DNA from: Squalus acanthias
Taxonomy: Eukaryota
Direction of reading: 5' to 3'
Assembly: GCA_030390025.1 (NCBI GenBank)
Contig: CM059432.1
Coordinates: forward strand, 23,314,001 to 23,378,000
DNA: 64,000 nucleotides
Within the stretch, counting starts at the first letter, position 1. Every line of letters starts with the position of its first letter. Both the position numbers and the translations under genes were made by a program. This document shows, piece by piece, positions 48-62,488 of the stretch. The notes beneath the pieces are model-generated. The model was not told the origin of the DNA. It searched no databases and was given only the letters and a program-made list of their open reading frames with translations.

Positions 48-83
48 CTCATTTCCTTTGAGACCATGAATACCAGCAGAGCC
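48..83 (-). CDS. Collagen IX-like exon (36 bp, ~exon 25): [12 protein letters not shown]
   Basis: cttttcag|GGC...GAG|gtaaaa; 36-bp exon after the 72-bp exon as in COL9 genes. Confidence 0.93.
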
Positions 84-3000
84 CTGAAAAGACAAAACAA
101 ACGTGAGTTTACAGTATCTGAATAAACCATTAGCAATGACCTAATGTGATCATCAGTTTCTGGGGTTGATCAATCAGTGCAGGAAAGAACATGGCCTTGA
201 AATGATATTCTGGGGATAAACCCTTCAAAAGAACACAGTTCTGATGATGGTGGTCTGCATCCGTGGTGTTTGCTTTTTTCCCCCTTTTCAGTGCTGATGG
301 ATTGACTTTCACATAACTTGCACCTGTGGGGTTTTTTTTAGTCCAATTTTCCCCATTTCCTTGCCTTTTACATTGTGATCCTCATCCTTGTTTTCAAATC
401 CCTCCATGGCCTCGCCCTTCCTATCTCTGTAATCTCCTTCAGCCCCACAACCTCCTCCCCCCCCCCCCACCCCCCGAGATATCTGCGCTCCTCTAATTCT
501 GCCCTCTTGAGCATCCCTGATTATAATCGCTCACCCTTTGGTGGCCATGCCTTTTGTCGCCTAGGCCCTAAGCTCTGGAATTCCCTGCCTAAACCTGTCC
601 GCCTCGCTACCTCTCTTTCCTTCTTTAAGACGCTCCTTAAAACCTACCTCTTTGACCAAGCTCTTGGTCACCTGCCCTAAATTTATCCTTATGTGGCTTG
701 GTGTCAAATTTTTTGTCTTAAAATACTCCTGTGTATCGCCTTGGGACGTTTTACTACGTTAAAGGCGCTATATAAATACAAGTTGTTGTTGTTGAGAGCC
801 TCTCACCATTTTAGCTATTTGCACATTCTTCTGACCTCCATTGATGTCTTTCCTTTGCCTCACTACGATGATCTGTTATACCACTGAAGAATTTCCTGCT
901 TTTCTATTAAGCAAGTTGCAGGTGTTGCCATATTGGCAATTTTAGAAATGGGCATCATGTCCTTCAGTCAGGAAGGGGTGTGCAAAATGTTTCCCCTAGA
1001 AAATGTTCATTTTTTTTATACCATATTTGCTGCATTTTGCAGTTGAATGCATTAGTGTCAGTTGTAAAATGTACCGAATGCTGCACTGCTTTCCGGGCGG
1101 ACAGAAAACTTTCTTGCACAGAAATGAGTTGAATCCAACTCCCGTATGACCAACTCAAGTGCAGCACCATCCATCATCGGAATGGCCCCACATGCATTCC
1201 AAAGCGAGGCTGCTGCCTACGGGCACTAGGTCAAGCCCTCCTCCCATTTGCGACTCTTACTTCAAAGTTAGCATCTCCAAGAAGTATGTGCCACCATTTT
1301 TAGTGCCTGATAGGTGAGCAGATGCTTCTCTTGAAATTAAAAGTGGGTATATAGCGTATACCCTGACTACACCCTGGTCCCAGGTCTTTCAACCCATTAA
1401 CTTCCTTTCTGCGAATGGAGAATGCATAGAATAGCATAGAAACAGGAGGTTCAGTCCACCCAGTCCGTGTTGGTGTATTCCCCACAGGAGCGTGGTCCTA
1501 ATCCCATGAGAGCAGTGGTCCCAATCTCATGAGAGCAGTGGTCCCAATCTCATGAGAGCAGTTGTGTGCTCGCTCTGTTCCCATAGTCCTTCGTTCACCT
1601 TTTCTTCAACCACCGAACTAACCTATTCTTAAGTGTTGACATGGTCTCTGCTTCATTAACTAACTCTGATAGTTCATTCCTTAGCCTCAGAATCCACTGT
1701 ATATAAAAGGTTTCTCCTAGTCTCTGTCCTAAATCTCTTAAATTTAATATTATATCTATATCCCCTTGTTCGAAACCCCTCAATCACTGGAGACAGTCTG
1801 CTTCTACCTGCTCTGTCCCATCCCATCATAATTTTAAACATCACTATCAAATCACCCCTTAGCCCCAATTTTTTGAGTCCTTCTTTGTATTTGTATTTCC
1901 TCTTACCAGGAAGCATCCTAGTGAACCTGCGCTATACTCTACTGCTTTAATGTACCAGTGGGACTCCAACTTAGTCTTAATAAGATTTTACATAGATTCA
2001 CCATTACATCTCAACTCTATCCTAAAATGTTTGCATATCTTTAAATAAAGGGCCTTAACTGCCGAGTTGACTAAAAATTGAACCAACAAAAACAGATTAT
2101 CTGGTCATTATCACATTGCTGTTTGTGGGACCTTGCTGTGCGCAAATTGGCTGCCGCGTTTCCCACATTACAACAGCGACTCCACTTCAAAAGTACTTCA
2201 TTAGCTGTAAAGTGCTTTGAGACGTCCGGTGGTCGAGAAAGGCGCTATATAAATGCAAGTCTTTCTTTCATAGTGTTTATCTTAACACTGGTGAAAAATC
2301 TTACACTAATCCTTAACAAATACATAGAATACATAAGCTGTACAGTATATTCTTCCACTTTTTAACTAATTAATGCCTTACCTTATCTCCTCTTCCTCCA
2401 GGAAAACCAAGAGGCCCCTGAAGACCTGGACGACCACAGTCACCCTTTGATCCCTATTAATCAGAAAATACCAATTAGTTGGAAAAACAAATGAGCTATG
2501 GTCGCAAGTCAATAAGAAGCCACACTTGTACAGAATGTGGATCAGAGATAGGGTCAAAGCATTGTAGCCCCAATCTCCAACCCACATTCCTTGCAAGTGT
2601 GACTAACCATTGGAAACATGGAATCATGCAATTACACAGGCTCGAGGGGGTGAATCTGTCCTATGTTATTTAAATTTTAAAAGAGTTTGGGAGGCACAAT
2701 GGGTTAGCACATTTTCTTTTCACCTCTGGACACTGGGCACAGGCTTGATGAGTCAAGTGGCCAGTTGTGTTGTAACATTTTATCATGTACTAGCCCAGCA
2801 CAGACTATAGAATGGAAATCTCTGTGGGCTGTTAGGTTGCTACAGGAGATAAGTTTGGGCGGTGCCAATCTAATTCCCAGTCAGTGTGGATCTGCAGCAC
2901 AAAACCTTTCAAAATATGACAGGAGGCCCATCTCATTAACAAAGCTCTGCCTGCTTGAGTGTAATCCCCACCGCCCTCCCAAGGAATCCTCAAGAAATCT

Positions 3001-6000
3001 CTGGGCAATGCAAAGAAGGTAGAGACCCAGCAAAATGGGCCTCCACCCCTTTTTTTCTGTTCTGTGCAGGAAAACAGATAGCAATTAATAATATTAAATT
3101 TATAGCCTGGAGATTTTTGCTCGGTTACCCTGTAATTTCATAGTTTTCTCCTCTTTAAAGTCATGCCTCAGGTGATTAAATAAACTATAAAACACACCAG
3201 GATAGCTCGCCCAATGGTCCAGTGAATGATTCCAACTGAGCCACACAGACTATGAAGATCCCTGGTCCAATCTTGGGTTTATATTGAGCTTGTTGATCTC
3301 AGCAAGTGGTGGGAGCACTGAAATTCATCTTAATGCTTAGGCAGGGGGGTGGGGGGGGGGGGGGGAGAAGTTAATCTAGGGTTCCCACTCCTGATTTCTA
3401 TCCACCGACTCCTGCTGGAACAGAGTGTGTCTGAAGACGTTCGTGTGAGGATAGAATCAGGTTCGGCTGTGATGTTCCACACCTCTCAGTGGTAGCACAC
3501 TTATCTCTGAGGCAGAAGGTCGTGGGTTCAAGTCCCACTTCAGAGACATGAGCACAAAATCTAGGCTGACACTCCAGTACAGTACTGAGGGATTGCTGCA
3601 CTGTCGGAGGTGCAGTCTTTCAGATGCAACGTTAAACTGAGATCCAATCTGCCCTGAGTTGGATGTAAAAGATCCCATGGCACTATTCCAAGAAAAGCAG
3701 TTCTCTCCGGTGTTCTGGCCAATATTTATCCCTCAACCAATATCACTCAAACAGATTCCCTGGTCATTATCTCATTGCTGTTTGTGGGACCTTGCCGTGT
3801 GCAAATTGGCTGCCGCGTTTCCTACATTACAACAGTGACTACATTTCAAAATTACTTCATTGACTGCAAAGCGCTTTGGGATGTCCCGAGATTGTGAAAG
3901 GCGCTATATAAATGCAAGTTCTTTCTTTTTCCTATTACATGATCAAATAGTCTAGCGACACTCACAGTCAATGGCTACTTGGATGCTGATTGGCTGTGGC
4001 CTTATAGGCCTGCTGCAGCACAGTATTGCAGGAACCCTCTTTGCTGCTGTTTTAAACTTCAAAGAAAAAAATCTCATTTTTGAAAATGGTGCCTACGCCA
4101 AGGCAATCGATACACACTTGAATATGTCCACCCTTCTACACCCTTCAGTCACATCTGGCAGGAAATCTAGGATGTGACAGAGACAAAAGGAGGTGGGGGG
4201 TGGGGGGAGCTGGAGAAATGCTTCACAAGCAATTTTCCACCACGTTCGAGTGGATTCACACCAGTTCCTCGGCGTAACTCCAGCGGAAAATCATGGCTTC
4301 AGTGTTCATAAAGATAAGTGTGACAAGTTTCTCAACAACTTCATTTAATGTATGTCAGTTCAGTTGAAACCTGGTTTTACTTACAGAAGGGCCTGGCAAA
4401 CCAGGGGATCCAGTTAGTCCTGGCTCTCCAGAATTTCCCTGTAAAAAAGCATCATATTAATGTTTAGTAATGTAAAAATGCACGCTTTGTATTGCAAGTC
4501 TTCCAATAGCACACAAGACTTTCCTCGGGTAAAGTAATGGTTGAGTCTGGCAAATAGAAACTGAAGGGATATTGGGGCTGGTTTTATTATCCCGTCCGTT
4601 TTTAGGCACAGTCAGGATCTTAAATCTAGCGGAAATGAGTTCTGCCGACTTGCCACCTAATTTGTGCCTTGCTCCATTATATGGTCAGTCCTTAGGAGGG
4701 CCTTGGAAGCTCCTATTCGAAGCAGCTGATAGCTTCTTTAAGGTATTCAAAAGGCCCACAGAAAGTGTCTTTAGACCTTATCTGGACCCTTCTTGACTAA
4801 CTATTATGCTGGAATTGTGACATGCCATCCTTCACATGGTACTGCATGAGTGTGCAAGAGCCAACATCGCCTGTTTGGCCACACTTGTCAAGATGGCACC
4901 AACCATTTCTGCAGGGCCTGTGATCTGTTTTCTCAAACGGGGTTAGGTGCTAGGTCGCTCCGTCACTTGTCTGCAGACCAATGTCTAAATTCAGGGTTAC
5001 TTTCCCCTTCATTTTTCCGGCTAATTTTAATCCTCTGCCATTTCAGCCTTCAGAAATGCTGCTGATGGGTTTAGATGCCTTTTAAGGCTCTCGAAAAGCT
5101 TGCTAAAATTTTGTCTCCTCACTATGATACGACCCTTTAATTGTCCCCATCCCTTTAAATTTCGCTTACATGCAATTTTCCTCTCCACCACTAGTGTCTT
5201 CCCTAAACCAGTCTCAGTTTGCTCTTGGAGCTTTGACGAATTCCTCAAATTAGCTTAGACTGGAGAATTGAGCACTATTTGCACTTGACCATTCTGGTGG
5301 ATTAGCTTCTGTTCTTAACGGTTTAGAACTAACTCTGACTGAAGGACAAAAATTGACCCTGAAGTCTGAGCAAAACAGCTGAGCCGCTGACAGTGTCAAT
5401 ATAATTTCACAGTATGCCAACCGATACAGTGTAGTTGGACATACTCCATTACACGGTTGGTCACTGGCATATCCGTTTCATCAACTACAGAATATTTCAT
5501 TATCATAGAATTCTAGAAATATAGGCACAAATGGAGATCATTTTGGCACATCATGCCTGTGCCACTCCATTCTCCTGTCCTTTTCCCACACTAATACTTC
5601 ATGGGCCGGATATTCCGATCCCTACGGGTGTGTACGCGCTGTGTACCCACCCGTAGGGACATCGGCATTTCTGATCTGTAAAGAAAGCTCTTGACAGATC
5701 CTCCGGCTGCCCTGGAGAAGGGCCTCTGCGGGCGGATAGTTCTGCTTTTTGGAGACCCTCCACCCGCAGAAAACCCTTACAATTCTTGCGCCTGGTAAAA
5801 GCAGGATAAGAGTTGAAAAAAGTTTTTTTTTTTAATTTCCACTGATTTATCATTTAAAAATACTTTTAAAAAAAGGGAAGTTTATTTTTAGCCCCATAAA
5901 AAACTTTAATTATTTTTTTCAAAAATTTAAAGTTTTGTTTAAAATAGTTAATTTATTTGTACTTTCAAGTCATTTAAAAAATTTGATTTTTAAAAAAATT

Positions 6001-45000: not shown

Positions 45001-48000
45001 TTTGGCCTTTATGGCCCTAGAAGAAAAAAGGTAGTTAGTTTAAGAATCAATATTTCTGAGCAGGCTCGTGGCACAGTGTGCAGGGGAACCAAAATACAGC
45101 ATCATAGGATGGAGGAACACAGGGTTGATCCACTTCACGTCCGAGCTCCCAGTCTCAGTCATGCTCCCCTGTTAGAGTAGAAACCAGACACGTCTTCACA
45201 AAAGGGGAGGGACAATTGGAGTAATTTCCTTGCCACTGTGATGCAAAATGAAGGGTGGCACTGGCAGAGGTCTGGGGGCATGATGACCACCCAAACACAG
45301 GAAGGGCATGGTCCAGCAACACATGTGCAGGTGGAAAAAACAGAAACACCTCATAAAAAGAGGATTTGTCTCTCCAAACCCTCGCATCACAGAGTGAAAA
45401 CCCTGTGCCGCCATTAGCAAAGCAAAATTCAAATTTATCAACACAACAGGAAGGCAAGCTGGCCTTTAAATGTCATCTTGGCTCAGTTGGTAGTATCCTC
45501 ACCTGAGTCAGAAGGTTGTGGTTTCAAGCCCCACTCCAGGACCTGAGCACATAATTTAGGCTGCCACTTTAGAGCTCCACTGTCAGAGGTCTGTCTTTGG
45601 ATGAGTCATTAAACTGAGGCCCTTTCTGTCCATTCAGGTGGATGTTAAAGATTCCATGGCACTACTCAAAGAAGAGCAATGAGCCAATCTGTGTCCAACC
45701 CAACATGCCTCCCTCAGCTTACAGCACCAAAAGACAGAACCTTCCCTCAAGACCGGTGATAGGCTCGATTATTAATGGATAGGGACAGAGCCAATTCATT
45801 TGACCTTTTCTTTTACCACGCTTTCTTATGTGATAGGTTTCAGGGCATTTACCAGGATGAAAAGTCCTCAGTAATTGTATTTATATGAGTTGGAGTAGCA
45901 TAATGTAAATGAATTGTTGTTTACCTTAAACCCTAGTAGCCCAGGGGGCCCAGGAGGGCCTGGAGGACAGGACATTGTACACTGAGAAGCAGAACAAAGA
46001 CTCTCTTAGTTATGTTGCATAAAAATAACATCAGACTAAAGAAATTCAAATATACAAATCATTGTTCAAGTAAGTGATTTATGTCCCACGGATGGGAGAT
46101 ACAAGAAGTTTCCTTGTTTCATATACAATTGCAATAGCTATCAGGCGTGGGCATCTTCCAATCCCCATCCACCTTACCAATTAACAAATAGAGTGGCCCA
46201 TCTAACCAATAGATCCAACTGACCAATAGAGTGGCCCCGTCTGCAGCATCTACCCAGATCCACTTCCCCAGTATCCAGCATTGCCTCCCTCTGCCCCGAT
46301 CCAGAACTGAGGACAAGAAAAGGACCTGCAATGGTCTCACTTGGTTGTTTTTCTATAATTCGCTCTTCTCCAATGTGGAATTATTTTTTTTCTTATATCT
46401 CATGTGATAGGTCAAAATGACTGGAGTGTTAGCAAGGGTTCCAGGACTAGGCCAAAGACAACTGGTGCATGCTTTCTTTTAAAAGTAGCAGCCTCCTTAG
46501 GATATCTGGATGCAATTAGAGTCTTATGATTTCCATCAATTAAGAAGTTTCAAAGTGAGCTTACTGTTCTGGGGCGTTCAGTGGGTGTAGCAACAGAGTA
46601 AGTGAGGCAAGAAGCCGGTGATGCCTCTCCTGCCTCATTTCCACCTATTTGCTGGGCCTGTACCTACTACAGTAAGTGCAAGTTCAACTCACCCCAGCCT
46701 ACTGGTGAAGCCAGAGAAAATGTAAAAGTTAAAGATACCCAACAAAACTGGTTAGTCCTGACCTCTGTGCCTGGGGACATAGGTGTTCTTTTCAGGTAAA
46801 AGTCAGGAAATTCAGCCCCTGAACTCTTGATCACTGCCTAATTCAACTGTCTTCATATTCCTTAACATCCTTAAATAAGTTTCCAGTTCCCTTTCAAACA
46901 TATTAATTGACACTGCGTCCATGGCCATTTGGCCAGTGTCCTCCATACACTTACAATCCTTTGTGCTAAGAAATTCTCTCTGGCTGAGTTAAAATTTTAA
47001 AATTAACATTTCCTGGGCATGTTCTGATTTACTTTTGCCAGTTTCATTAAATAAACTTCTCCAGCTTGACCATGTCTGATCTGATGAAGGGTCTCACCAG
47101 AAATGTTAACCAATCTTTTTCTTCCAGGTTCTGGTTGACCTGATGTGTATTTCTTGTTTTTTCTATTTTCTTTTTCTTTTTGGTCAGTCAGTTACATGTG
47201 GAAACCCATCACCATGGTCAAGGGTCTCCAAACTAAGATACTGTGAAATCCACACAGGGAGTGCACACTATATCTCTCTGGCGACACAAGCATGGGAACA
47301 AAGGCAACAAAGGGAAATGATTGCCAGGAGGGAGGATTTTGGCCTACACCAACCTGGAAGGAGAGAGCTTCACGGAGGGCACATTTCTGTGCCAAAACTA
47401 CTCAAAATGAGGGCCTGGATTAAATAGCTGGTGAGGAGTAAGCCTGGTACACAGCATTGCACTCGGATGCCTAAAACATCAAGGTGACTGGCAGATCGAA
47501 TGCTATATAGATGTTTATTTTTGAGCACCCTGTGCACTTACCACAACATCTCCACTTCCATCTCCTCCTGCCGTGCCAGGTGCGCCCTTTGCAAAGGAGA
47601 GAAGCAGCATTTAGTCATTTGTATTAAATTAAAAACAAACATGAAAACTGCAGCTTAATAAACATTTTTTGTTAATAATTAAAGTATTTTCTGCAATTTT
47701 GTTTTTGCTGCAGATTGGATCCATGCGTGTCACCGGGCTTTTTACACCTTGTTCAAGTGGACATGATGCATGGGACTGGACAGTGAGGGTCAACAGGCTA
47801 CTTAATTATGGGAGGCAGTACAGTAGAGATTAATTCTGTTCCCACAACAAAGTTAATGAATGTTTTGAGTAATTCAGTTTAAAAAAAAACTGGATCTCCC
47901 TTTGTAGGTCTTCTGAATGGAACCGGCACACAATCAACAACAAATATATGTACCAGGCAACTACCACTGGAAACACCTAAAGAGTGAAATATGAAAAGGA

Positions 48001-51000
48001 TAATGCAGAACTTACTTTGGGCCCTGGAGGTCCAGGCACGCCAACTGCTCCTTTTGTTCCAGGGTCACCCTAACATTCAAAATAAAACACAGCTAAGAAC
48101 TTCCTGTGATTTTGTAACACCGCAGTCAACAGTAGAATCTTCATTCTGGAGTTTGTCCAATAACACACATGTTCACACAATCGAATTCAAGTACACAGAC
48201 AATGCCTTGTGGCTACAGTCCAAACTACATAGTGCAACATGCAGCTCCCTACTCGTGTGGTATTTAATAGAGGAACAACAAAAATCAAATTAGAAAGTGC
48301 AAGAAATGTAAATAAAAAACATACATACTAAGCCCGGCATGATTGCATGGAAAAAAAAGAAAAAGATTTGCATTGATATAGCACCTTTTACGACCTCAGG
48401 ACGTTCCAAGGCGCTTTACACCAATGAAGTACTTTTGAAGTGAAGTGTAGTCACTGTTGTAATGTAGGAAACGCAGCAGTCAATTTGCATACAGCAAGCT
48501 CCCACAAACAGCAATGTGATAATGACCAGATAATTTGTTTTTGTGATGTTGATTGAGGGATAAATATTGGCCAGGACACCAGGGAGAACTCCCCTGCTAT
48601 TCTTCAAAATAGTGCCATGGGATCTTTTACGTCCACCTGAGAGGGCAGACAGGGCCTCGGTTTAACGTCGTCTGAAAGACAGCACCTCCAACAGTGCAGC
48701 ACTCCCTCAGTACTGCACTGAATTATGTGCTCCAGTCCCTGGAGTGGGACTTGAACCCACGACCATCTGACTCAGAGGCGAGTGTGCTACCCACTGAGCC
48801 ACAGCCAAAGCAACCAGCTCCTCCAAGGAGGGGAAGAATGTAACTTCAAGTCTACGTTCCCGCACACATTGAGTTTTCAATCTTAACTGTGCCACTGAGC
48901 TGGCGATCTGCACTTTTACACAGATAGGAAAAATGTAGTAACCTGTGAAATTCTGCACATCTTGATTTATTGGTTTCAGAGCTGCACTAACAAGGCCCTA
49001 TACAGCTGCCTGTCAAGCCTCTTGCATCGAAATACAAAGGCCCGGATTTTGCAGTCAGCAGCAAACGAACGGCGCTCACCGTTCATTATGCTCAGAGACT
49101 CTTAGTAGGCTTTTGCACGGCAATTTATGGTAATTAGAGAGCCATTTTAGCGCAGCGCCTTCTACAGGGGATCTGGGACCTGTGTGAACAGGGAAAGCAA
49201 TAGCGTATCTCTTCAGCCAGTCAGATTGAAAAATCCTTACTGAGGCACACAGAGTCTAATCCAGGAAGTGTAAGTTAGAATATTTAATTTAATGTAAAAT
49301 CATGTACAGAAAGCGAAATAAAGAGTTCAAGAAAGATGGGATTAAGAGAGAGAGATAAAAGAGGCAGAAAGAAAAAGTAATTGTTTTTTTAATTCTTTAA
49401 AAATCTCCAATAATAATTAAAATCTGAAGGAATGAGACCCCATGCTTGTAAAAATTAATTTTCAGTGGTTGTTTTGTAGTAATGAAGACTTATCACACCG
49501 TTAAAAATTCACTTGCACTTCAATGGACCAGCCCGAGCTTTTTCTGGTGAGTTTAGTGGGTATCTAGTGGGTAAGTACCACAACTTTACACCCTTCATGT
49601 GTTTGAATGCCGAATCTCTCAGCGAGGCACCCATGTCGCGAAGCTTGTGGAGGAGTAGGGCAACTCGAACAGCAACTTCCTGATTTCCGCGTTTAACGGC
49701 GCATGTGCAGACGCTGGAAGTTGCTGTCCGATTTACTCCATAATAACAATGAGCGCCGATAGCCTCACCATTATTTCTACTGCAAAATCCGGGCCGTAGA
49801 AGTCACAACATAGAAACAGGACATTCAACCCAACCATGCCTAGGTTTACTCTCCATACGAGCAAATAGTCCTAATCACATTTAGCCACCCTGTTCCATGC
49901 TCCTTCATCCTCTTTTCTTTCATCCACCTCTCCAATCTTATCTTGAATGTTGACATAGTTTCTGCCTGAACCATTAACCCTTGAAGTGAATTTCACAGCC
50001 ACACACCACTAAAGAAGTTGCTCTATGGTCCCTTGTTCTTGACCCCGTTAGCCATGGATGATGTGTGGAGTTGACAGACCCAAGCAACTTATGTTGTACA
50101 TGTTACATGTAACAAGTTGTACGTTACATTTTTTTAAAAATGTGACTTGAAAACACCAATGACCAAACCAAATTAAAGTAATATGAAATGAGAGAGAAAG
50201 AAAGGTTTAGTGTTTCAGGAGGGACAGACACTTCATCAGAATTTGGACCCTGTCTTTAAGCTTTCTGATGCTGACTGGACTGCTGTGCATTTTCTGTTTT
50301 AATTTCTTATTTTCTTCCACTTGAGCGACTTTATGCTGGCTATTCCGATGCCGGAATTTTGTTGCAGCTTAAATTAGGTGGCCAGAGTTGTTAAATGGGC
50401 AGTTTTCTCACCCCTCCAGAAATGCAAAGTTTGCATCCATATCTGAAGGCAATCGGCAGGTAATTCATGCTGACAAAGGCTCTGGGAAGCTGCGGCTATA
50501 GACCCAATGGTACCACTAGGATGCGTAAATGCTTGATTAACCTCAATTGGGCAGGATATGTGGTGGTAGGGTCACCCACCTCAAAGAGGCAGCCGTTTCA
50601 ATTATATATTAATTTGAGGGGGTATCGGTACCTCACACAATTCCTCACTGTTCTGGTGTGCAGGAGCCAGATGCGAAAAATGTCCATTTAAAATAGGCAT
50701 TCCTAGTTGGTAGTGAGTACACTGGAGGGCATGGAAAGGACACAGTGATAGAAAAGTAAGTGTATTTTAGCCTTTTTTTAAAAACTGTTTTTCTTCATTT
50801 TTGTTTGTTATTTTCTTTTTCCTGCTGGCTCTTAGATTCTCATAAGCCTTTGTCACAATTATTGTAAATTATTTATTTTTTTCCCTCAGGCCCATTCCGG
50901 ACACGAATGGGAATCCTCCTATCTGATGGGTTTGTTAAAAAAAGAGGGCCTATGGAGGGACGCCATCAGGTCAGGTATGCTCATGAAAGATGTTATGCTC

Positions 51001-54000
51001 CTACCCGTCAGTACCCACAGGTCAGTGGGTACAGTATCTACAGACTTTGGCAGGTAATTTATACTAATGATTCTGGGGGCTGGAGTACAAGGGGGTGGAA
51101 GTTATGCTCCAGTTGTATAAAGCTCTGATTAGGCCACATCTGGAAAACTGCGTTCAGTTCTGGGCACTGCACCTCAGGAAGGATATTTTGGCCTTCGAGG
51201 GAGTGGAGCGCAGAATGATACCGAGGCTAAAAGGATTAAGTTAGGAGGAAAGGTTGCATAGACTAGGCTTGTATTCCCTTGAATATAGATTAAGGGGTGA
51301 TATAATTGAGGTGTTTAGAGGGTAGATAGAGAGAAACTATTTCCTCTGTTGGGGGAGCCCAGAACAAGGGGGCATAACCTTAAAATTAAAGCTAGGTCGT
51401 GGTGATGTCAGGAAATGCTTTACACAAAGGGTAGTAGAAATCTGGAACTCTCCCCCAAAAAGCTGTTGAGGGTAGGTCAATTGAAAATTTAAAAACGGTG
51501 GTTGATAGATTTCTGTTAAGCAAGGGTATTAAGGGTTATGTAACCAAGGCGGGCAAATGGAGTGAAGATACAGATCAGCCATTATCTAATTGAATGGCGG
51601 AACAGACTCAAGAGGCTGAATGGCCTATTCCTGCTGCTATGTTCCAATGGCACCACTAGTATATTGGTGGCCGTGCCTTCTGTTGCCTAGGCCCTAAGCT
51701 CTGGAATTCCCTCGCTATCTCTCTTTCCTCCTTTAAGACGCTCCTTAAAACCGACCTCTTTGACCAAGCTTTTGGTCACCTGCCCTAATTTATCCTTATG
51801 TGGATCGGTGTCAAATGTTTTGTCTTAAAATATTCCTGTGCATCGCCTTGGGACGTTTAACTACGTTAAAGGCGCTATATAAATACAAGTTGTTGTTGTT
51901 GTTGAATGCTTGATAAACCTCAATTACTTATCCAAGTAATAATTGATTGATTATCCTCAGAAGCAGCTCAATCAGCAGGGAAGCTGTTGCAGTGTTGTAA
52001 CATCTGCTGCAAGGAAACCTGCAGCTACCATACAGCAAAGGACTGGCATGTCCAGTAAGAGTAACAAACAGCTGTGGCCTGGAACTTGGCAGCTCACCCT
52101 TGCTACGACGTTGAGCTGTTGGGATGGTGCTGTGGAGTGGCACAGAAGGCTACCCTCTTCGCAATCACCTCAGGCAGCACCACCTCCAAGGTCAGGTGCT
52201 CCGTCACTTGTATACAGCCTCATGCCTGCACCTTGGGTTTCCCTCTCCCTCAGTCTCTTCTTAGTCCTCTGCCATTTCAGTCTTGCCAAAGGCTGCGAAT
52301 GGGTTTTCAGATGCCTTTTGAGGCTTTCTAAAGGCTTTCAGAATTTTTGTCCTCGCATTGTGACACTCGCTTTTTAAATTGTCTCCATCTTTTAAATTTA
52401 ATTTACAAGAAACTTTCTGCTCCCATCACTAGTTTGCTCCATACATCTATCGGATCTACACTTATAACTATGATAGTGAGCTGAACTTGGAAGACTGGGC
52501 ATGAACCCTTCCCTTTCAGTCTGTCTAAACAAGGTAAATAACGCCAAATGTCGAAAAATCTAATGAATTCTTTGAAGTTATCTGCTTACAGGCTGCCCTG
52601 GAAGTCCAGGATCCCCAGGAAGTCCATTTTCACCAGATGATCCCTGAAAAATGAGAAGATAGCAGACGATGAGAGCACAGCCAATAAGAAGCATTTCATG
52701 AATTCCCTCAAATCGTTTCGAAAGATCTGTAAAGCAAATGGTGTTGATTAGTTTACTGGTCTTTTCTCATTCCATGGTTTCTTATGCTCTTAGAAATTTC
52801 GGTCAGAAAATCATGGGACTGGGCAATAAAGGAGTATTCAGATTCAACTGTTTCACCTCCTGTGAAACCATATGATGTAAGTAGTCTAAGATTGGATTAT
52901 GACTGTGCCAGTTTGAAGATAATAGCTGCAGTTGGCACAATGCCACAGAATCCAATCCTCTTCTTATCCTCACAATTTTATAGCCTACAGTAAACTCAGC
53001 TTACTTACTGGTGCCCAGCAGCAGATTTAAATGAGCGAAGCCCACACAAACTGGATCCTATGGCTTCTGCTGAAACCTGGAGTATGGCTGTGCATATACA
53101 GACATTCTGGGGGTAATTTTCATCAAACTCTCCAGGAGAGAAACGGGTGAGTTCAGGTCGACCGCCCGTTTTACACCTCGCCTGAAGCTAATGGAGCGTA
53201 AAATCAGACAGAGTGTAAATCAGACATCTGACCCGAACCCACCCACCATGTTAGGTTAAAATGAGCCCCTATGAGTCTGTTGATGTAGTTACGATGTACC
53301 AGTGCTGGGACTGCCGTTCATTAGATGCTGAACACCCTATATCCAAAAGAGCTGACTCCACATCATAATGTGATGTCAACCCATTTAGTGAATTTTCAGG
53401 CACTCCCTGCATAGTGTATGATATGCTGGGAGCAACACAGAGGGTCGGAGGCAGGAACGTCAGATGCCATCAGCCAGTGAAGGCCTGCTGGATTCCCATG
53501 AAACAGCAGCATTTTCGTGTGTCCCAAATGTGGTAGAGACTTGGGGCTAAATTTTCCAGGGTGGTAGCGGGGGAGATCGGTGGCGGGTCGGGTGGGAAAG
53601 TTGTTTTTTTTGACAGCGGGTCGGGAATCCGCTGTCAACTCGCTCCTACACGCCTTTCACCCAGGCGGGTCTGTCATCATGGAGCCGACCCAACCAGCAG
53701 TGACCCAATTCAAATCATTATGAGCTACTTTACAGGCACCCAAGAGCCTTTTTTCCCCAACTTTTTACATTTTCCTGCATGGTCACGGGATTCACACAGC
53801 TCGGGAACCATGTCTGTCAACCTGAGGCATGAGTTCCGTGGCCATTGCTCCAGCTGATTACTTGACAGCATGGAAAACAAACCAAAATAAAAACATGTTG
53901 ATTACATCAGCTAACAGATTGATGGAGATTCTGTTCTACTTGAAAAGCTACTGGTAAATGTTAATTCAGAAATTCCTGAAAGGACATAAACGCTGAGGGA

Positions 54001-57000
54001 AAAACATTTTTCACTGGCCATTCTTGGCTGTGCCTTCCAACTCAACAGTAATTGCAGTGAATTGATCTGCACTATAAATAATGACATATACCATTTCAAT
54101 ACATTTTTGTGTTGTTTTTGGTCGGGCTTTTCTCAGTATACTGTGATTGTCCAGTTACACATTAAATCAAGTCATCAACCGTAACAATTTTATTCTCATC
54201 ACTCATTCCACTGGTTCAATTTGCTTTCAGTCCTTGAATATGACTCATTTAATTTTTCAGTCTGAGACTGTAGGGTAAATTTCTGCGGAGGTTCTCTCAC
54301 TTGTCCATTGTTAACTTCAATGGAAGAGCTGCAGAAATCCCAGAAACACATTGTAAGCACCACTTACACAGTTAGGGTTTCCGCAGCTCTTCCGCTGAAC
54401 TTGCATAAGATTGTAAATCCACCCCTTTACAATTACATTTAAAATCTGCTATGTATTATCTATCACACACATCTCTTTTATTTGTACCAGTTACTGATAC
54501 AAAAGTCTATAGATTTGTGACTAAAGCACCAATAACGTACCAATTAATGTACTTTTTTAATTATGTTCTTGATCGTATTTGTAGATGGAGTCATATTACT
54601 TAATATTTAAATATTTCTTTGTCACTCATATATAACTTATTATATTATTGTACAGTAAAGATTCAACACCTACTATGTTAGATTAAACTTAAAATTTAAT
54701 GTAGCCAGGGTCCCTTTAAGGATCCTGGTTTAAAACGCATCATGAATGATGACACCAGACCCGCGCCATCTAATTGGGCCGGGTAACGTGCTGGGCGGGC
54801 TTAATAGGCCCTATTAAGATAAGTTCATTTTCTACAGCGGGATGGAACCAGCCGCGGGGTTTGGGACCCGCCACGGACACCGGCCGCACCAGACCCGCCA
54901 AGGTAAGGAAAATTCCAGCCTTAGGTTCACATGTACGTATTTGGTTGTAGAAATCCAGAAAAATGGGGACCAGTAAAAAAGGGTGGCCCTATAAGGAAAG
55001 GGCCAGCCCGAATCAAAATTTAACATTTTTGAGGCAGTTTTCACCTTCAGTGCCCATTGGGAATGATACTCCGGGGCTCCAATTCCATTAACTGCATCTT
55101 TTCTGGGGTCATAACGAGCCTTGTGCACAGTCTCTGAACACGGCAGTGCTTCGGGCTCACAAGGGAGATGAAGAGAGCATTGAGCACATGGTAGACCTTA
55201 AGCCCCCACATCCAATAGTACAGTATCATTAGGCATCCACCATCGCATTATCGAGTACATGCACAGTGACACTCTTCACTTCAAAAGGCAGTATAACGTT
55301 GGCAGTGCCAGTGAGGAACATGTTTAACATACCTTGGGGATAATTTTAACTTTAGGCGAAAGCGTAAAATGGGTGATAATGAATTAGCCACCCGATTGTG
55401 TCTTCGATGGAAAGGAATATCAAGTGTGTTGTATAATGGGCATGTAATTCGATATCGGCCATTTTACATCATCGTCCAAAGTTAAAATTACCCCCTTGTT
55501 TGCACCAGAACTCAAGTGTAAAATGGGCAAAAACCTGTTAAAATACCCACCTTTTATTAGAATAAGTCCTTCCAAACCAACCATTTTACATATGCCAACA
55601 AAACACATGTAACAGCCAATGCTCCAAATATGTGAAAGAAAGGAACAGCATAAAGCCTAGCATACAAGACACCCCTTTATTACGCACCTATCATTATAGT
55701 AAAAATACTTAGTAGTTTCACTGGTGAAAACTATAACTACAGGCACAGAAAATGTACTTTATTGCACAGTAATTACAATAGAAATATTATATAATTATTC
55801 TGTTGTAGAACAACTTCCTACATAAGATTTTGACATTATATTAATTTAAACGATTAACCATATTTATACAGATAAGAAAAGATATAAACTATGGAAAGTT
55901 TAGCTTTAAGCCAATTATCATGGAGGCTTCTCCCAGTCTGTCCAAGTTATAGAGGCCGAGTGGGATGAAGCCCCAAGGAAATTCCCCCCCCAATCACGTG
56001 ATGAAAGGGATGAGGGGAACTAAATTTACAATTACAAGCTGAAGGAAGATTTTTTTGGCATATGTGTATGTTGTATTTATTTAGAAATATGTCGAATTCT
56101 TAGTTTGTGAATGTGGAATGATTTTTTTTCCTTCCCTAATCTCCTGTTCCTCCTGAGATGAGGTCTTCACAAGCTAACCATCACCACTTTGGTAATTTCA
56201 TCTCTGGCCTTTCCGCTCTTGTTTCCAAGTTCCAAATAGACCATCTTGTCTGCTCTTCTTCCTCCCTGCATCTTCACTGTGTTGAAATCAACACTCCTAC
56301 TCATATTTCACTAAGTCATTCTTTACCAAAATCTCCAAACTGGAACTGCTTACCTCCTTCAGTCTTCACTTCCTCCAACAACCTGCAGCTTCTAAACCTG
56401 ATCTTGGTCTCATCTGACCACTACGGTTTAATTTACTTTTTTTTTACTTTGGTGATGATCTACACTATGTGGCCTTAGTTTCTCAATAAAAATTAACTTA
56501 AATCACAGGTACAAATAATGTTCCTCAACTACATTAAATTCAATTTCTGAATTTCTAAAGAAGAAGATGATATTTTTCTTCTTTGCATGAAGAATGATTC
56601 CACAATCCCACTCTCCCACTACAATCAAAGGAAGCATGGACATTGATAGCAGCGACAATACTGAAGCTCCAATTCTCCCAGCCCACCCCAGTTGCTTGTG
56701 GTCCCCTCCTGGTCGTTTGCGATCATGGACTCACTCCTTAAACTTTATGCAAATCATGTCAAGAATTACAGTTAATCCCACGTAAAGACCTTATTTACTT
56801 ACTGGGATTCCAATTTTCATTGGCCCCTGTTGAAAGACAAAAAGAGAAGCCCTTGTTAAACGTAACTCAATTATACAACATAAATTATTGTTTTTTTATT
56901 AACCAATACTGGGTGTTTTAAATGTCAATCGGATTGTCGGAAATATTTGATCTGCAGCCAGCCACACAGAGTGCTGAGTGTATTGCCATGCCTATTGACT

Positions 57001-58250
57001 TTTTCTGATGTCGTCAGGTGATTATGTTCAGACAAGAACTTCACAGCATAAGTTGCTGCTAGGGTAAGAACAGTAAGCCAAAATAATGGGAAGCAAAAAT
57101 GTGAACCGGGAGTTTCCAAGAAGAATTGACTGCACACAATTACATAACCACATATCAAGAAAAAGCTATTTGGGAAATACTGGAATCAAACAGTGGGTTT
57201 ATCAACACACAGCTTCTGGCTCCTTCATGTAAGTAAAATATTTGGTTACTGTATTCAATAGCTGCTACACATATTTGGGAAATGATCTGTGACATAATGG
57301 AGTCTAACTCATCTTTCTGTAGATACCTACAGAGGCAATTATCAAGTTGCATGCTCATCCAAGTTAGCCAATAAAAGAACCAAAGCCAGTGATATAACTA
57401 CACAAACCACGCCTGGCCTCTGTTGTTAGACCCTGAGCTTTCACGGTTAGGAAGGAGAATTACAAAGTTGATCTAGCTTGATTGTTCACTACGATAAAGG
57501 GTTCAATTGTCAAGAATTAAGAAATTGGGAGGTTAAGGAAAGTTAGACTGGTAACAGAATTATGGATTAAGGTAAGATAATTATGGGAAGGCCATTCAAG
57601 TAAACAGTCCAGACTCAAATATTTCAATGCTCCCCTCGCAGACCTCCCATCTTCGACCCTCTGTAGACTTCAGCTCACTTAAGACCCTCCTTAAAACCCA
57701 CAACTTTGACAAAGTTATTGGCACCCCACCTAATGTCTCCATGTTTGTTTCAGAGTGCATTTTTGTTTGATTATGCCTCTTTGAAGCACCTTAGGATGCT
57801 AACGGCGCTATTTAAATGCAAGTTGCTGTTGTGACAACAAATTGAGGGATATGGTACGAGGCAGGTAAATGGGACAGGCTTATTGGGCCTAATGACCCTT
57901 TTCTGTTCTTAAAAATGTCTGTGTTCTTATCATGCAAAAGAAGGTTCTGGGAACAAATAGTACAGCTCACGGACCTGTTTAAGTCCAGTAGATCATAAAC
58001 AAACTCTGGGGCAGCAACAGCTTTAAAAGTAGTTTGGCAGAATCCAAAATGACATGGTATTTGTTTCTGCTTCAGTATTAATTACTCAGGTCAGTCACTG
58101 ATCATTAGCATTCAGTAAAATCATCATTGGTTTAGTCTCTCACGCTCAGGCCCCCAGGCAAAACAACCTCAAAAACTTTCAATGTGGAATAGCATTACAA
58201 AGATTAATACTTACTGGTGGACCTTCTGGACCAGGCATGCCAGGAGGACC
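48..58250 (-). CDS. Type IX collagen alpha-chain-like gene (FACIT collagen), internal part: 20 coding exons covering COL3 end, NC3 and most of COL2; both gene ends lie outside the window
   Basis: 20 exons with canonical AG/GT boundaries, all phase 0, splice into a 339-aa Gly-X-Y frame with no stops. The size series 36,24,54,54,45,57,54x8,45,54x3,72,36 matches COL9A1/2/3. NC3 reads [19 protein letters not shown] (cf. COL9A3 [19 protein letters not shown]). Which chain it is remains unresolved. Confidence 0.93.
377..793 (+). mobile_element. L2-type LINE 3' fragment
   Basis: Peptide [13 protein letters not shown]...[15 protein letters not shown]...[10 protein letters not shown]; ends AAGGCGCTATATAAATACAA(GTT)n; near-identical copy at 51660-51903. 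Confidence 0.85.
1425..1945 (-). mobile_element. Degraded CR1-type LINE 3' fragment with a 23-bp tandem repeat (AGCAGTGGTCCCAATCTCATGAG x~3, ~1490-1562)
   Basis: ORF 1674..1916 has LRGDLI..FKIM.G.D and RTRGYRY, typical of the CR1 ORF2 C-terminus. Confidence 0.75.
2382..2453 (-). CDS. Collagen IX-like exon (72 bp, ~exon 24): [24 protein letters not shown]
   Basis: ttaatag|GGA...AAG|gtaagg; 72-bp exon as in COL9 genes. Confidence 0.95.
3200..3480 (+). mobile_element. Old, diverged SINE-like family (core TGTGCTGAGTTAGCTGATCTCAG); copies at ~8330-8580(-), 17590-17860, 25480-25830(-), 28530-28890, 29140-29460, 43140-43990, 61870-62050
   Basis: Recurrent diverged motif blocks read by eye; family not named with certainty. 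Confidence 0.6.
3484..3926 (+). mobile_element. tRNA-headed Deu-type SINE (SacSINE1-like) with L2-derived tail; other copies at ~2085-2269, 6315-7497 (split by a MITE), 22540-23770 (-, split), 45475-45735, 48355-48805 (-)
   Basis: A-box-like CTCAGTGGTAGC and B-box GGTTCAAGTCC; core GCTGACACTCCAGTACAGTACTGAGGG; tail AAGGCGCTATATAAATGCAAG shared with the L2 fragments. Confidence 0.8.
4385..4438 (-). CDS. Collagen IX-like exon (54 bp, ~exon 23): [18 protein letters not shown]
   Basis: ttttacag|GGA...TCT|gtaagt. Confidence 0.95.
5603..6276. mobile_element. Harbinger-type MITE
   Basis: TIRs GGGCCGGATATTCCGATC / GATCGGAATATCTGGGCC; 3-bp TSD CAT. Confidence 0.8.
6559..7321. mobile_element. Harbinger-type MITE inserted in a SINE
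   Basis: TIRs GGTCCAGATTTTGCGGTCGG / CCGACCGCAAAATCAGGGCC; SINE resumes after the element. Confidence 0.8.
9370..9592 (+). mobile_element. Penelope-like element fragment (family A) interrupting the CR1 ORF2
   Basis: TSD AAATAATA (9362-9369 / 9593-9600); contains a hammerhead core; shares its 3' block with the 12805 and 16024 copies. Confidence 0.8.
9501..9535 (+). ncRNA. Minimal type I hammerhead ribozyme motif
   Basis: tac-CTGACGA-a-GGAGC-agt-GCTCC-GAAA-gc-TC-gta: both conserved cores, stem II, short stem I, CUC triplet. Confidence 0.75.
12805..12910 (+). mobile_element. Penelope-like fragment (family A) with hammerhead motif at 12819-12860
   Basis: 14-bp TSD TTCATAAATAGAGG (12791-12804 / 12911-12924); tcac-CTGAGGA-a-GGAGC..GCTCC-GAAA-gc-TT-gtga. 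Confidence 0.82.
12929..14209. mobile_element. Harbinger-type MITE (same family as 22778-23608, opposite orientation)
   Basis: TIRs GGGCTGGATTTT / AAAATCAAGCCC; TSD ATA; removal restores CR1 GAGGCATAGAGTACAAG. Confidence 0.87.
13685..14135 (-). mobile_element. HE1-like V-SINE with CR1/HER1-derived tail
   Basis: V-domain GGACTGTGGGAGGAAACCGGAGCACCCGGAGGAAACCCACGCAG; tRNA-like head; (TTTCTATG)n tail; internal ~48-bp duplication. Confidence 0.85.
14861..14914 (-). CDS. Collagen IX-like exon (54 bp, ~exon 22): [18 protein letters not shown]
   Basis: ttcctaag|GGT...CCT|gtaagt. Confidence 0.95.
15620..16250 (-). mobile_element. Non-LTR retrotransposon 3' fragments (WNSLP-type end); related pieces at ~15180-15310, 19540-19685(+), 26850-27880, 37500-37762(+)
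   Basis: Shared blocks CCCTCCAAGTCACACACCATCCTGACTT and GCAGCGGTTCAAGGCGGCGGCTCACCACCACC. Confidence 0.65.
16024..16203 (+). mobile_element. Penelope-like fragment (family A) with inverted 5' duplication and hammerhead motif (16073-16112)
   Basis: 11-bp TSD CTGCTGTAGTA (16013-16023 / 16204-16214); perfect 50-bp inverted repeat 16024-16073 / 16094-16143. Confidence 0.85.
16318..16540. mobile_element. Penelope-like fragment (family B), fold-back, with hammerhead motif at 16440-16474 (+)
   Basis: 12-bp TSD CACCAAACTACT (16306-16317 / 16541-16552); ~80-bp inverted arms; gtt-CTGACGA-a-AGGT..ACCT-GAAAC-ATT-aac. Confidence 0.82.
17966..18019 (-). CDS. Collagen IX-like exon (54 bp, ~exon 21): [18 protein letters not shown]
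   Basis: attacag|GGT...CCT|gtaagt. Confidence 0.95.
18090..18515. repeat. Purine-rich degenerate tandem repeat (AACTAAATGAGG/GAGAGA units)
   Basis: Direct reading; becomes a long pyrimidine tract upstream of exon 17966-18019 on the transcript strand. Confidence 0.7.
18521..19257. mobile_element. GC-rich Harbinger-type MITE (related to 27114-27759)
   Basis: Ends GGGGAGAAAT / ATGTCTAGCCC; AGCGC-rich interior; shared block CCTTCC(C)TCCC..TAAAGGGAAGGG. Confidence 0.7.
20108..20152 (-). CDS. Collagen IX-like exon (45 bp, ~exon 20): [15 protein letters not shown]
   Basis: tttttaag|GGA...AAG|gtaatc; 45-bp exon at the expected position. Confidence 0.95.
20288..22310 (-). mobile_element. CR1-clade LINE RT fragment, nearly open
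   Basis: ORFs 21278..22000 and 20366..21277 are in the same frame, separated by one stop in GVPQG*VLGP; FADN at the active site; (CTATGACT)n tail. Confidence 0.95.
22778..23608. mobile_element. Harbinger-type MITE inserted in a SINE
   Basis: TIRs GGGCTCGATTTT / AAAATCCAGCCC; TSD TTA on both sides. Confidence 0.88.
23859..23912 (-). CDS. Collagen IX-like exon (54 bp, ~exon 19): [18 protein letters not shown]
   Basis: aatatag|GGT...CCT|gtaagt. Confidence 0.95.
24500..25167. mobile_element. Partial MITE of the 49039-49795 family
   Basis: Shared blocks ATCTGGGACCTG.GTGAACAG and AATTAATTTTCAGTG; degenerate right TIR. Confidence 0.6.
25247..25300 (-). CDS. Collagen IX-like exon (54 bp, ~exon 18): [18 protein letters not shown]
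   Basis: attttag|GGT...AAG|gtaaca. Confidence 0.95.
25336..25443 (-). mobile_element. Penelope-like fragment (family B)
   Basis: 10-bp TSD GTAAATTGTG (25326-25335 / 25444-25453); similar to 16318-16540. Confidence 0.82.
25402..25436 (-). ncRNA. Minimal type I hammerhead ribozyme with canonical GUC triplet
   Basis: gtt-CTGATGA-a-AGGTC-atc-GACCT-GAAAC-GTC-aac on the minus strand. Confidence 0.8.
25841..26009. mobile_element. Penelope-like fragment (family B), fold-back, hammerhead truncated
   Basis: 12-bp TSD CTAAATGGGCAA (25829-25840 / 26010-26021); ~44-bp inverted arms. Confidence 0.82.
27114..27759. mobile_element. GC-rich Harbinger-type MITE
   Basis: TIRs GGGGGAAAAACTGAGTTGC / GCAACCGAATTTTTCCCCC; TSD TAA. 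Confidence 0.85.
28960..29013 (-). CDS. Collagen IX-like exon (54 bp, ~exon 17): [18 protein letters not shown]
   Basis: ttttctag|GGT...CCT|gtaagt. Confidence 0.95.
29665..29718 (-). CDS. Collagen IX-like exon (54 bp, ~exon 16): [18 protein letters not shown]
   Basis: gttatag|GGG...AAA|gtaagt. Confidence 0.95.
30697..30750 (-). CDS. Collagen IX-like exon (54 bp, ~exon 15): [18 protein letters not shown]
   Basis: tcattcag|GGC...ACT|gtaagt. Confidence 0.95.
31590..32370. repeat. C-rich degenerate repeat (CCCCGACCTCCAATCTC-like units), probably internal to a MITE starting ~31276
   Basis: Direct reading; source of the Pro/Ser- and Gly-rich spurious ORFs. Confidence 0.7.
33010..36285 (+). mobile_element. 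CR1-clade LINE RT fragment split by an LTR element
   Basis: ORF 33446.. (DFQKAF, WLQDRKQ) breaks at 33683 and resumes at 35358 ([14 protein letters not shown]); ATCCTATGTAATCCTATGT tail. Confidence 0.9.
33684..35357 (+). mobile_element. Truncated ERV/LTR element: 3' internal segment, polypurine tract and 1221-bp 3' LTR (34137-35357)
   Basis: PPT AGAGGGGGGA (34126-34135) just before TGTAAG; LTR ends CTACA; TATAA ~34686; AATAAA 35203-35208. Confidence 0.78.
37208..37341. mobile_element. 134-bp hAT-type MITE inside an L2 fragment (~37125-37490)
   Basis: TIRs CAATGTTC / GAACATTG; 8-bp TSD CCTACAAC / CTTACAAC. Confidence 0.75.
38895..39185. repeat. AT-rich minisatellite, ~24-bp unit ATTAATATGCAACAATCTGCATAG
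   Basis: Direct reading; about a dozen degenerate units. Confidence 0.8.
39681..39734 (-). CDS. Collagen IX-like exon (54 bp, ~exon 14): [18 protein letters not shown]
   Basis: cttacag|GGT...AAA|gtgagt. Confidence 0.95.
39793..41159. mobile_element. Two adjacent degenerate Harbinger-type MITEs (~39793-40316 and ~40411-41159)
   Basis: Ends GGGCCTGAAATTCTG / CAGATTTTCTGACCCC and GGGGTTTATTTTAAC / GTAAAATTTATCCC. Confidence 0.55.
41221..42295 (-). mobile_element. CR1-clade LINE 3' fragment with open RT C-terminal frame
   Basis: ORF 41314..42324 ([27 protein letters not shown]); microsatellite tail. Confidence 0.95.
42909..42962 (-). CDS. Collagen IX-like exon (54 bp, ~exon 13): [18 protein letters not shown]
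   Basis: aacacag|GGG...GAG|gtatgt. Confidence 0.95.
44963..45016 (-). CDS. Collagen IX-like exon (54 bp, ~exon 12): [18 protein letters not shown]
   Basis: ttcttctag|GGC...AAG|gtatgt. Confidence 0.95.
45925..45981 (-). CDS. Collagen IX-like exon (57 bp, ~exon 11, NC3/COL2 junction): [19 protein letters not shown]
   Basis: cttctcag|TGT...AAG|gtaaac; 57-bp exon with two Cys is diagnostic of COL9 chains. Confidence 0.96.
47542..47586 (-). CDS. Collagen IX-like exon (45 bp, ~exon 10, NC3 start): [15 protein letters not shown]
   Basis: ctttgcaaag|GGC...GTG|gtaagt; position of the variable-length NC3 exon. Confidence 0.9.
48016..48069 (-). CDS. Collagen IX-like exon (54 bp, ~exon 9): [18 protein letters not shown]
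   Basis: atgttag|GGT...AAA|gtaagt. Confidence 0.95.
49039..49795. mobile_element. Harbinger-type MITE
   Basis: Perfect 17-bp TIRs GGCCCGGATTTTGCAGT / ACTGCAAAATCCGGGCC. Confidence 0.82.
51050..51903 (+). mobile_element. Degraded CR1 3' fragment (to ~51645) followed by an L2 3' fragment (51660-51903)
   Basis: CR1 C-terminal and 3' UTR blocks; L2 end near-identical to 540-793. Confidence 0.8.
52590..52643 (-). CDS. Collagen IX-like exon (54 bp, ~exon 8): [18 protein letters not shown]
   Basis: ttttcag|GGA...CCT|gtaagc. Confidence 0.95.
53544..54920 (+). mobile_element. Non-autonomous Harbinger derivative related to the element at 62489
   Basis: TIRs GGCTAAATTTTCC / GGAAAATTCCAGCC followed by TTA; block CAGCTCGGGAACCA.GTCTGT shared with ~62750. 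Confidence 0.7.
55336..55494. mobile_element. Short palindromic MITE (similar element at ~53108-53269)
   Basis: GGGGATAATTTTAACTTT / AAAGTTAAAATTACCCC inverted ends. Confidence 0.65.
56803..56826 (-). CDS. Collagen IX-like micro-exon (24 bp, ~exon 7): [11 protein letters not shown]3 helix interruption
   Basis: ctttcaacag|GGG...CCA|gtaagt; size and position match the 24-bp COL9 exon. Confidence 0.88.
58215..58250 (-). CDS. Collagen IX-like exon (36 bp, ~exon 6): [12 protein letters not shown]
   Basis: ttttgaag|GGT...CCA|gtaagt; Gly-X-Y. Confidence 0.93.
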
Positions 58251-60865: not shown

Positions 60866-61230
60866 GAACATAAGAACATAAGAAATAGGAGCAGGGGTAG
60901 ACCATTTGGCCCTTCGAGCCTGCTCCGCCATTCAATAAGATCATGGCTGATCTTCTACCTCATCTCCACTTTCCTGAACTATCCCCATATCCCTTGATTC
61001 CCTTAATATTCAAAAATCTATCGATCTCTGTCTTGAATATACTCAACGACTGAGCCTCCACAGCCCTCTGGGGTAGAGAATTCCAAAGATTCACCACCCT
61101 CTGAGTGAAGAAATTTCTCCTCATCTCAGTCCTAAATGGCCGACCCCTTATTCTGAGACTGTGACCCCTGGTTCTAGACTCCCCAGCCAGGGGAAACATC
61201 CTCCCTGCATCTACCCTGTCAAGCCCTGTA
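60866..61230 (-). mobile_element. CR1 3' fragment
   Basis: ORF 60960..61199 ([20 protein letters not shown]); (TTCTTATG)n tail. Confidence 0.9.
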
Positions 61231-62488
61231 AGCTATAGCTTTACTGAACATTATTACATACCCTTGAAAATCCAAGTATGATATCTAACAGCTTTTTCTA
61301 TTCCAAATGTCTGTTAATTCAACAATATGCTTAATTAAAGCCAACTGTAGTTTGCTGCCACATTTCAGTGTTACATGTGTTCTTAGGTTGCAGCAGGAAA
61401 TGACCTTATGCTGTCAATTAGCAGCTAATACACATGGGAACGTTTTGCTGTAATCTTTACCATTCACCCTGACAACGATTCATAAACTTCTATTGATAGA
61501 AGCAGAAATTGAATTTGTCGCTCGCTCTATTCAAACTACTGTAAAGGTCAGCCTGTTTAATGGGGCAACCTTCATTATTACCTTAATGGCAAGATTACAG
61601 TATAATGAAGAAAAGAAAGGAGACGTTTTAACATTTGAATAATCGGAAGGTGACTCATTACATTGACATAACTGTCTCTCGTATTGGTTATTGGCTTCTC
61701 TCTGATATTTTTTTTTAATTGAAAAAGAAATAAACTTGTCACTCTACTTGTCATCCACTTTTTTCTCCTTCTGGTTTTCCAAAGCCATATTCCAGGGGAG
61801 GGGGGAAGAGCAGATTATGAGTATTGAGGTGATGTAGTAATTTGAAGCACCAATGCACAGCACCATTTAATGGCTGGATTCAGGTATGATTCCCACTTTG
61901 CCCCATCCTACTGAGTTCCTGATCTCAGCTATGCTGCTGTGAAGAGGTGTGATTTGCAGGTCAATCATCTCCGCATGGGAGCGGGAGTGGATAAATTCAG
62001 AGGGAGAGTCATCACAGGCTCTTGTTTCATACCTCCTCGAGGCCAGTAAAGAACAACATGAGAAGAAGTTTGGGAGCAGGAACTAAATGGCCTGATGAAA
62101 CCTATAGGAAGAATAAAAAGATCTAAGTCTAAGTTAGCCACTTGAAGGCATAGAAGAATGGCTCTGGAACAATATCAATTTTTCTCCAGTTCTGTGAAGA
62201 AATGTCTGATCTTACCTCACATCATTGCCGTTGAGTTTGTGAACTCAGTGAAATGACAGAACAATGAATGTCCTTTTGGGTATATGAGCGTGTTAATCAT
62301 TCTTACGTAGACTTTGTCAATTGGAACTTTGGCATTCAAGGGGAAGCTACATTAACTCATGAGGGAGAAAGGAATAGGATATGTTGATGGGGTTAGATGT
62401 AGAGGGGTGGGAGGAGGCTCATGTGGAGCATAAACACCGGCATGGACCTGTTGGGCCAAATGGCCTGTTTCTGTGCTGTAAATACTTT

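Follow-up and report, generated by a model that had tools for sequence, protein, structure and literature searches.

Organization of the locus

The window, by which we mean the whole 64,000-nucleotide stretch of Squalus acanthias DNA analysed here, contains the middle of a collagen IX-type gene, comprising part of the COL3 helix, the NC3 hinge and most of the COL2 helix. A six-frame scan of the window finds Gly-X-Y blocks nearly confined to the minus strand, and splice-site scans define 20 exons there, every one in phase 0 with an AG acceptor and a GT donor (19 came from the scans, and the 24-nt exon at 56826-56803 was added separately). Exon sizes are, in order, 36, 24, 54, 54, 45, 57, eight of 54, 45, 54, 54, 54, 72 and 36 nt, and the introns between them range from 429 to 10422 nt. 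Spliced together, the exons make up 1017 nt encoding a stop-free peptide of 339 residues, the final 87 triplets of which are uninterrupted Gly-X-Y. A chance control, a scan for Gly-X-Y exons of 36, 45, 54 or 72 nt bounded by AG and GT, gave 19 matches on the minus strand (17 exons and two nested alternative acceptors), one on the plus strand and none in each of 30 shuffles. These scans bear out an earlier note on this DNA, which had described 20 short exons in the COL9 size series, and the 339-residue peptide that it proposed to splice is open throughout. Exon scans of 58251-64000 found no additional exon; the gene's two ends are therefore placed outside the window, and we infer that the gene continues past both window ends. 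The exons are as follows.

w1: 58215..58250, minus strand, 36 nt, Gly-X-Y, COL3-type helix
w2: 56803..56826, minus strand, 24 nt, helix imperfection
w3: 52590..52643, minus strand, 54 nt
w4: 48016..48069, minus strand, 54 nt
w5: 47542..47586, minus strand, 45 nt, COL3 end and NC3, Asp-Gly-Ser-Gly-Asp, a candidate glycosaminoglycan site
w6: 45925..45981, minus strand, 57 nt, Cys-x3-Cys-Pro-Pro-Gly junction and COL2 start
w7: 44963..45016, minus strand, 54 nt, COL2
w8: 42909..42962, minus strand, 54 nt, COL2
w9: 39681..39734, minus strand, 54 nt, COL2; contigs from two related organisms cover it
w10: 30697..30750, minus strand, 54 nt, COL2
w11: 29665..29718, minus strand, 54 nt, COL2
w12: 28960..29013, minus strand, 54 nt, COL2
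w13: 25247..25300, minus strand, 54 nt, COL2
w14: 23859..23912, minus strand, 54 nt, COL2
w15: 20108..20152, minus strand, 45 nt, COL2
w16: 17966..18019, minus strand, 54 nt, COL2
w17: 14861..14914, minus strand, 54 nt, COL2
w18: 4385..4438, minus strand, 54 nt, COL2
w19: 2382..2453, minus strand, 72 nt, COL2, lone Cys within the helix; best PDB match alpha3(IX), in register
w20: 48..83, minus strand, 36 nt, COL2

The 45-bp NC3 exon with a Ser-Gly pair that had also been described is present at 47586-47542, where the pair is flanked by acidic residues (Asp-Gly-Ser-Gly-Asp). In the partial peptide, the hinge cysteines are at residues 72 and 76 and the lone helix Cys of w19 is at residue 309. 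The latter occupies a Y position in COL2 and has no Cys in register in the three PDB chains considered below; judged from the sequence, an additional disulfide between chains could form there.

In two related organisms, contigs span the locus with ~4-6% difference, and the differences listed for exon w9 in these relatives include one synonymous change and one Ser-to-Pro change. Two presumed RNA runs leave the bins of w6 and w7 nearly uncovered, with no exon-exon joint among those shown; because repeats swamp this output, it is uninformative on expression either way. The introns harbor LINE fragments at 8657-10840 (plus strand) and 41317-42372 (minus strand) with endonuclease and reverse transcriptase Pfam matches, and further ORFs resembling LINE fragments lie at 12008-12541, 20369-22042 and 33404-33862. 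ARAGORN calls a tRNA-Thr at 27809-27882 (minus strand), which has no Rfam match and is probably a tRNA-derived SINE head. ORFs at 63129-63927 (plus strand) resemble what we take to be a Harbinger-type transposase fragment; the one ORF scanned there gave no Pfam match.

Membership in the collagen IX family

The window gene is a collagen IX-family member. Its exon series (36-24-54-54-NC3-57-8x54-45-3x54-72-36) is the same as that of human COL9, and its COL3 helix is followed by a short NC3 with the Cys-x3-Cys-Pro-Pro-Gly arrangement that is a collagen IX feature. The human NC3 exons measure 33, 48 and 42 nt for alpha1, alpha2 and alpha3, respectively; our literature search found no printed source for the human COL9 exon sizes, these three included. 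The COL2 helix is, moreover, colinear in HMMER-printed alignments with the collagen IX chains of PDB entry 9WXP, with in-register identity above background (by-eye counts, given below). This entry contains segments of alpha1 (chains AJ/BJ), alpha2 (BK) and alpha3(IX) (BL), from a species that we take to be mammalian. From w11 to w19, the window gene, alpha2 and alpha3 each count 141 residues, one more than the deposited alpha1 (140). The top PDB match of the 72-nt exon w19 is 9wxp_BL 146-169 (alpha3; E 0.28), and the exon also matches 9wxp_BK 144-167 (alpha2; E 0.55), both in register; at such E values, the evidence is the register, not the score.

Homolog searches with single exons (2 candidates) and with four exons (530 candidates) returned no match at E<=10. 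Simulated queries of these styles have almost no power, so these blank searches mean little. A 17-exon stacked profile had no COL9 chain among the matches listed (at least 150 generic collagen-like; at least 120 mostly COL21 and MARCO), and we rejected an identification as COL21 or MARCO from this ranking, which reflects composition. A metagenome motif scan gave 119 loci with no vertebrate COL9 exon, further PDB searches gave no more in-register COL9 sequence, and an Atlas search with the NC3 exon gave nothing useful.

Distance to the alpha1, alpha2 and alpha3 chains

X/Y identities were counted by eye within the HMMER-printed stretches, which were chosen by the queries and cover less than half of the protein; the 9WXP structure lacks COL3 and NC3. 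Counted in this way, the window gene matches alpha1 at 37/147, alpha2 at 20/70 and alpha3 at 26/93 positions, each above (P<1e-4) a background of 11.5 +/- 2.8% with a maximum of 21.2% (1865 in-phase placements, 68 fetched collagens), and the three identities are indistinguishable from one another (P=0.83). Where all three chains are printed (64 positions), the window gene shares 19 with alpha1, 18 with alpha2 and 16 with alpha3, and the chains share 28 (alpha1-alpha2), 23 (alpha1-alpha3) and 18 (alpha2-alpha3) among themselves, all by eye. The window gene is no nearer to any chain than alpha1, alpha2 and alpha3 are mutually, an equidistance that a fourth paralog predicts.

Identity to alpha1 (37/147) lies below that between alpha1 and alpha2 (28/64; Fisher P=0.009, by eye and on different position sets), contrary to COL9A1 orthology, although a faster rate could mimic this low value. 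The corresponding comparison for alpha2 (20/70 versus 28/64) gives P=0.07, and that for alpha3 (26/93 versus 30/89 for alpha1-alpha3) gives P=0.43, again by eye. Four-point sums over the 64 shared positions (84, 87 and 91 differences) give a weak pairing of the window gene with alpha3, and exon w6 has as its top Atlas match a CO9A3 cluster at 0.96, but with 72/256 features shared; these two results fit a paralog sister to alpha3 and an alpha3 ortholog equally well. Two mammalian COL21 orthologs share 30.5% and 28.3% of X/Y positions with bamboo shark COL21, from which it follows that an ordinary ortholog can diverge as far as the window gene has.

The earlier note had read the peptide as a mosaic of motifs from the three chains. 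Its GTK triplet is indeed found in register in alpha1. The accompanying GRDG occurs in register in alpha3 as well and is thus not alpha1-specific, and at GSPGLPG, also called alpha1-like, the printed alpha1 has Pro at the window's Ser. Residues inherited from a common ancestor are the best reading of this mosaic, GRDG being an example. As for the broader proposal of a fourth paralog that is not alpha1, alpha2 or alpha3, the COL9 family assignment holds and no chain is recognisably closer, but a fast-evolving alpha3 ortholog also fits.

A candidate fourth chain and its counterparts in bony fishes

Published work describes an extra COL9 gene in Polypterus, in bowfin and in zebrafish. In the passages of the Polypterus study considered here, the col9a1-like gene LOC120515855 is described as "absent from tetrapod genomes," and col9a1b, col9a2 and col9a3 appear in an endochondral list and Col9a-like in a dermal list (PMC12923738). 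Passages from a bowfin study place col9a3-like a/b, up 417- and 19-fold, together with actinodin (PMC8423624); the corresponding models, AMCT00021755 and AMCT00021756, have adjacent IDs and could be either a tandem pair or two parts of a single gene. In zebrafish, an EGFP-Col9a1c fusion (col9a1c, LC546948) expressed from an actinodin promoter, with no rescue test, localises to actinotrichia (PMC10119692), and excerpts from two other reports tie col9a1c mutants to disordered actinotrichia (PMC11409509, PMC13120675). The catshark passages name COL9A1, Col9a2 and COL9A3 as the only COL9 members among skeleton-biased genes, a list in which 256/654 transcripts are unannotated (PMC13188829), and an excerpt on lamprey reports col9a1 expression in cartilage (PMC10161429). 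The name of the fin-fibre gene follows a different chain from one annotation to the next, as would be expected if it were an equidistant paralog. A tetrapod-lost fourth COL9 gene is already known; what our literature search did not turn up is a shark ortholog or a tree that places the gene as a fourth ohnolog, its coverage of the col9a1c literature, which may discuss the gene's range, being partial.

We consider it likely that the window gene is a fourth paralog of some kind. We lean, with less assurance, toward a candidate chondrichthyan ortholog of zebrafish col9a1c, Polypterus col9a1-like (Col9a-like) and bowfin col9a3-like. More tentatively, the gene may be the missing fourth COL9 copy from the vertebrate duplications, with COL9A3 as its sister and zebrafish col9a1c as its ortholog. 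FACIT chains trimerise through NC2, lie with COL1 and COL2 along the fibril surface and project COL3 from the NC3 hinge. If the window chain behaves as its family does, it would trimerise via a C-terminal NC2 beyond the window, its COL2 (with COL1) would align it along the surface of collagen I/II fibrils, and COL3 would project from the hinge at NC3, where the cysteines would carry disulfide links and the acid-flanked Ser-Gly may bear a glycosaminoglycan. By analogy with the bony-fish genes, we infer a fin-fibre role, in which the chain would coat and align fin-fold fibres, in sharks the ceratotrichia, and would stay out of the alpha1/alpha2/alpha3 cartilage trimer.

Orthology to col9a1c would make the fin-fibre collagen named three ways in three papers one ancient gene, which would predate the shark/bony-fish split, have disappeared from tetrapods along with the fin fold and provide a testable marker for ceratotrichia-actinotrichia homology. 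Were it also the alpha3-sister fourth ohnolog, a dedicated fin-fibre FACIT would date to the first jawed vertebrates, as a ceratotrichia component, possibly homotrimeric and bearing a glycosaminoglycan site of its own and an extra helix cysteine, and would join actinodin among the genes lost at the fin-to-limb transition.

Unlikely, but to be taken seriously, is a fast-evolving ordinary ortholog, most likely COL9A3 (COL9A1 or COL9A2 being less likely), that works as part of the standard heterotrimer of cartilage, on collagen II/XI fibrils; a divergent alpha3 would be an ordinary gene. The Atlas match of w6, the best PDB match of w19 and the weak lean of the four-point sums all point to alpha3, and shark-mammal FACIT orthologs can fall to about 30% X/Y identity. 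The alpha3 identity (26/93; 16/64) is, however, no higher than that to alpha1 or alpha2 and is below that between alpha1 and alpha3 (23/64), the 45-nt NC3 exon is unlike all three human sizes, and the w19 Cys is absent from all three printed chains. More doubtful is a reading along the lines of the earlier note, in which the gene is a paralog retained or duplicated in cartilaginous fishes alone, distinct from the bony-fish fin gene and part of a non-standard shark cartilage trimer. The equal distance to the three chains and the NC3 Ser-Gly, an alpha2 feature, would suit this view. Yet ray-finned fishes without the teleost duplication already have an extra COL9 gene, so that one shared gene is simpler and the supposed restriction to cartilaginous fishes finds no support in the published record; the altered cartilage trimer likewise sits poorly with the association of the bony-fish gene with actinodin and fin-fold fibres and with the three standard COL9 genes of the catshark passages (PMC13188829), much of that list being unannotated.

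We regard as very improbable another FACIT collagen (COL16, COL19 or COL22-like) or a silent relic. Another FACIT is suggested by the predominance of COL21 and MARCO among the matches listed in the stacked-exon search, and the comparison set was without COL19 and COL16; against this, the best ungapped identity among 267 fetched proteins was 37/173 non-Gly positions, versus 25-29% in register to COL9. A relic is at odds with intact AG and GT ends in 20/20 exons, an open frame over 58 kb and orthologous DNA in the two related organisms.

Three known systems invite comparison. COL21A1 is a FACIT with a 339-residue helix following a Cys-Cys linker, but we rejected a COL21 identity: ten COL21 proteins match the window at 16-19% of non-Gly positions in register, within the 7-20% found off register, and COL21 has a VWA domain and no upstream helix, whereas the window has COL3. 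Neither the ortholog-level identity nor the absence of a COL3 helix that would mark COL21A1 is found in the window. Also set aside was a short peptide encoded by a zebrafish col9a1c primer, which ends in Thr-Val-Cys-Pro at residues 43-53 and resembles the window NC3; this likeness was dropped as orthology evidence because shark COL21 carries the same four residues just after VWA, at the thrombospondin-type start, and zebrafish col9a1c possesses a thrombospondin-type domain. The fish COL21-like proteins P0210, P0254 and P0116, set against P0256, share ~20% X/Y with bamboo shark and macaque COL21 and mutually (ungapped), and may reflect either poor gene models or an additional COL21 paralog in fishes.

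Mammalian-type COL9A1, COL9A2 and COL9A3 resemble the window gene in a colinear COL2, a 72-nt exon in register and X/Y identity well above background. The window gene differs in that its 25-29% X/Y identity to each is at or below their mutual 28-44%, and in its 45-nt NC3 exon and extra COL2 Cys. The fin-fibre collagen IX of zebrafish, Polypterus and bowfin is likened to it by gene inventory rather than by sequence comparison, from passages that contain no shark ortholog or tree, and the likeness is that of an extra COL9 gene beside the three standard ones.
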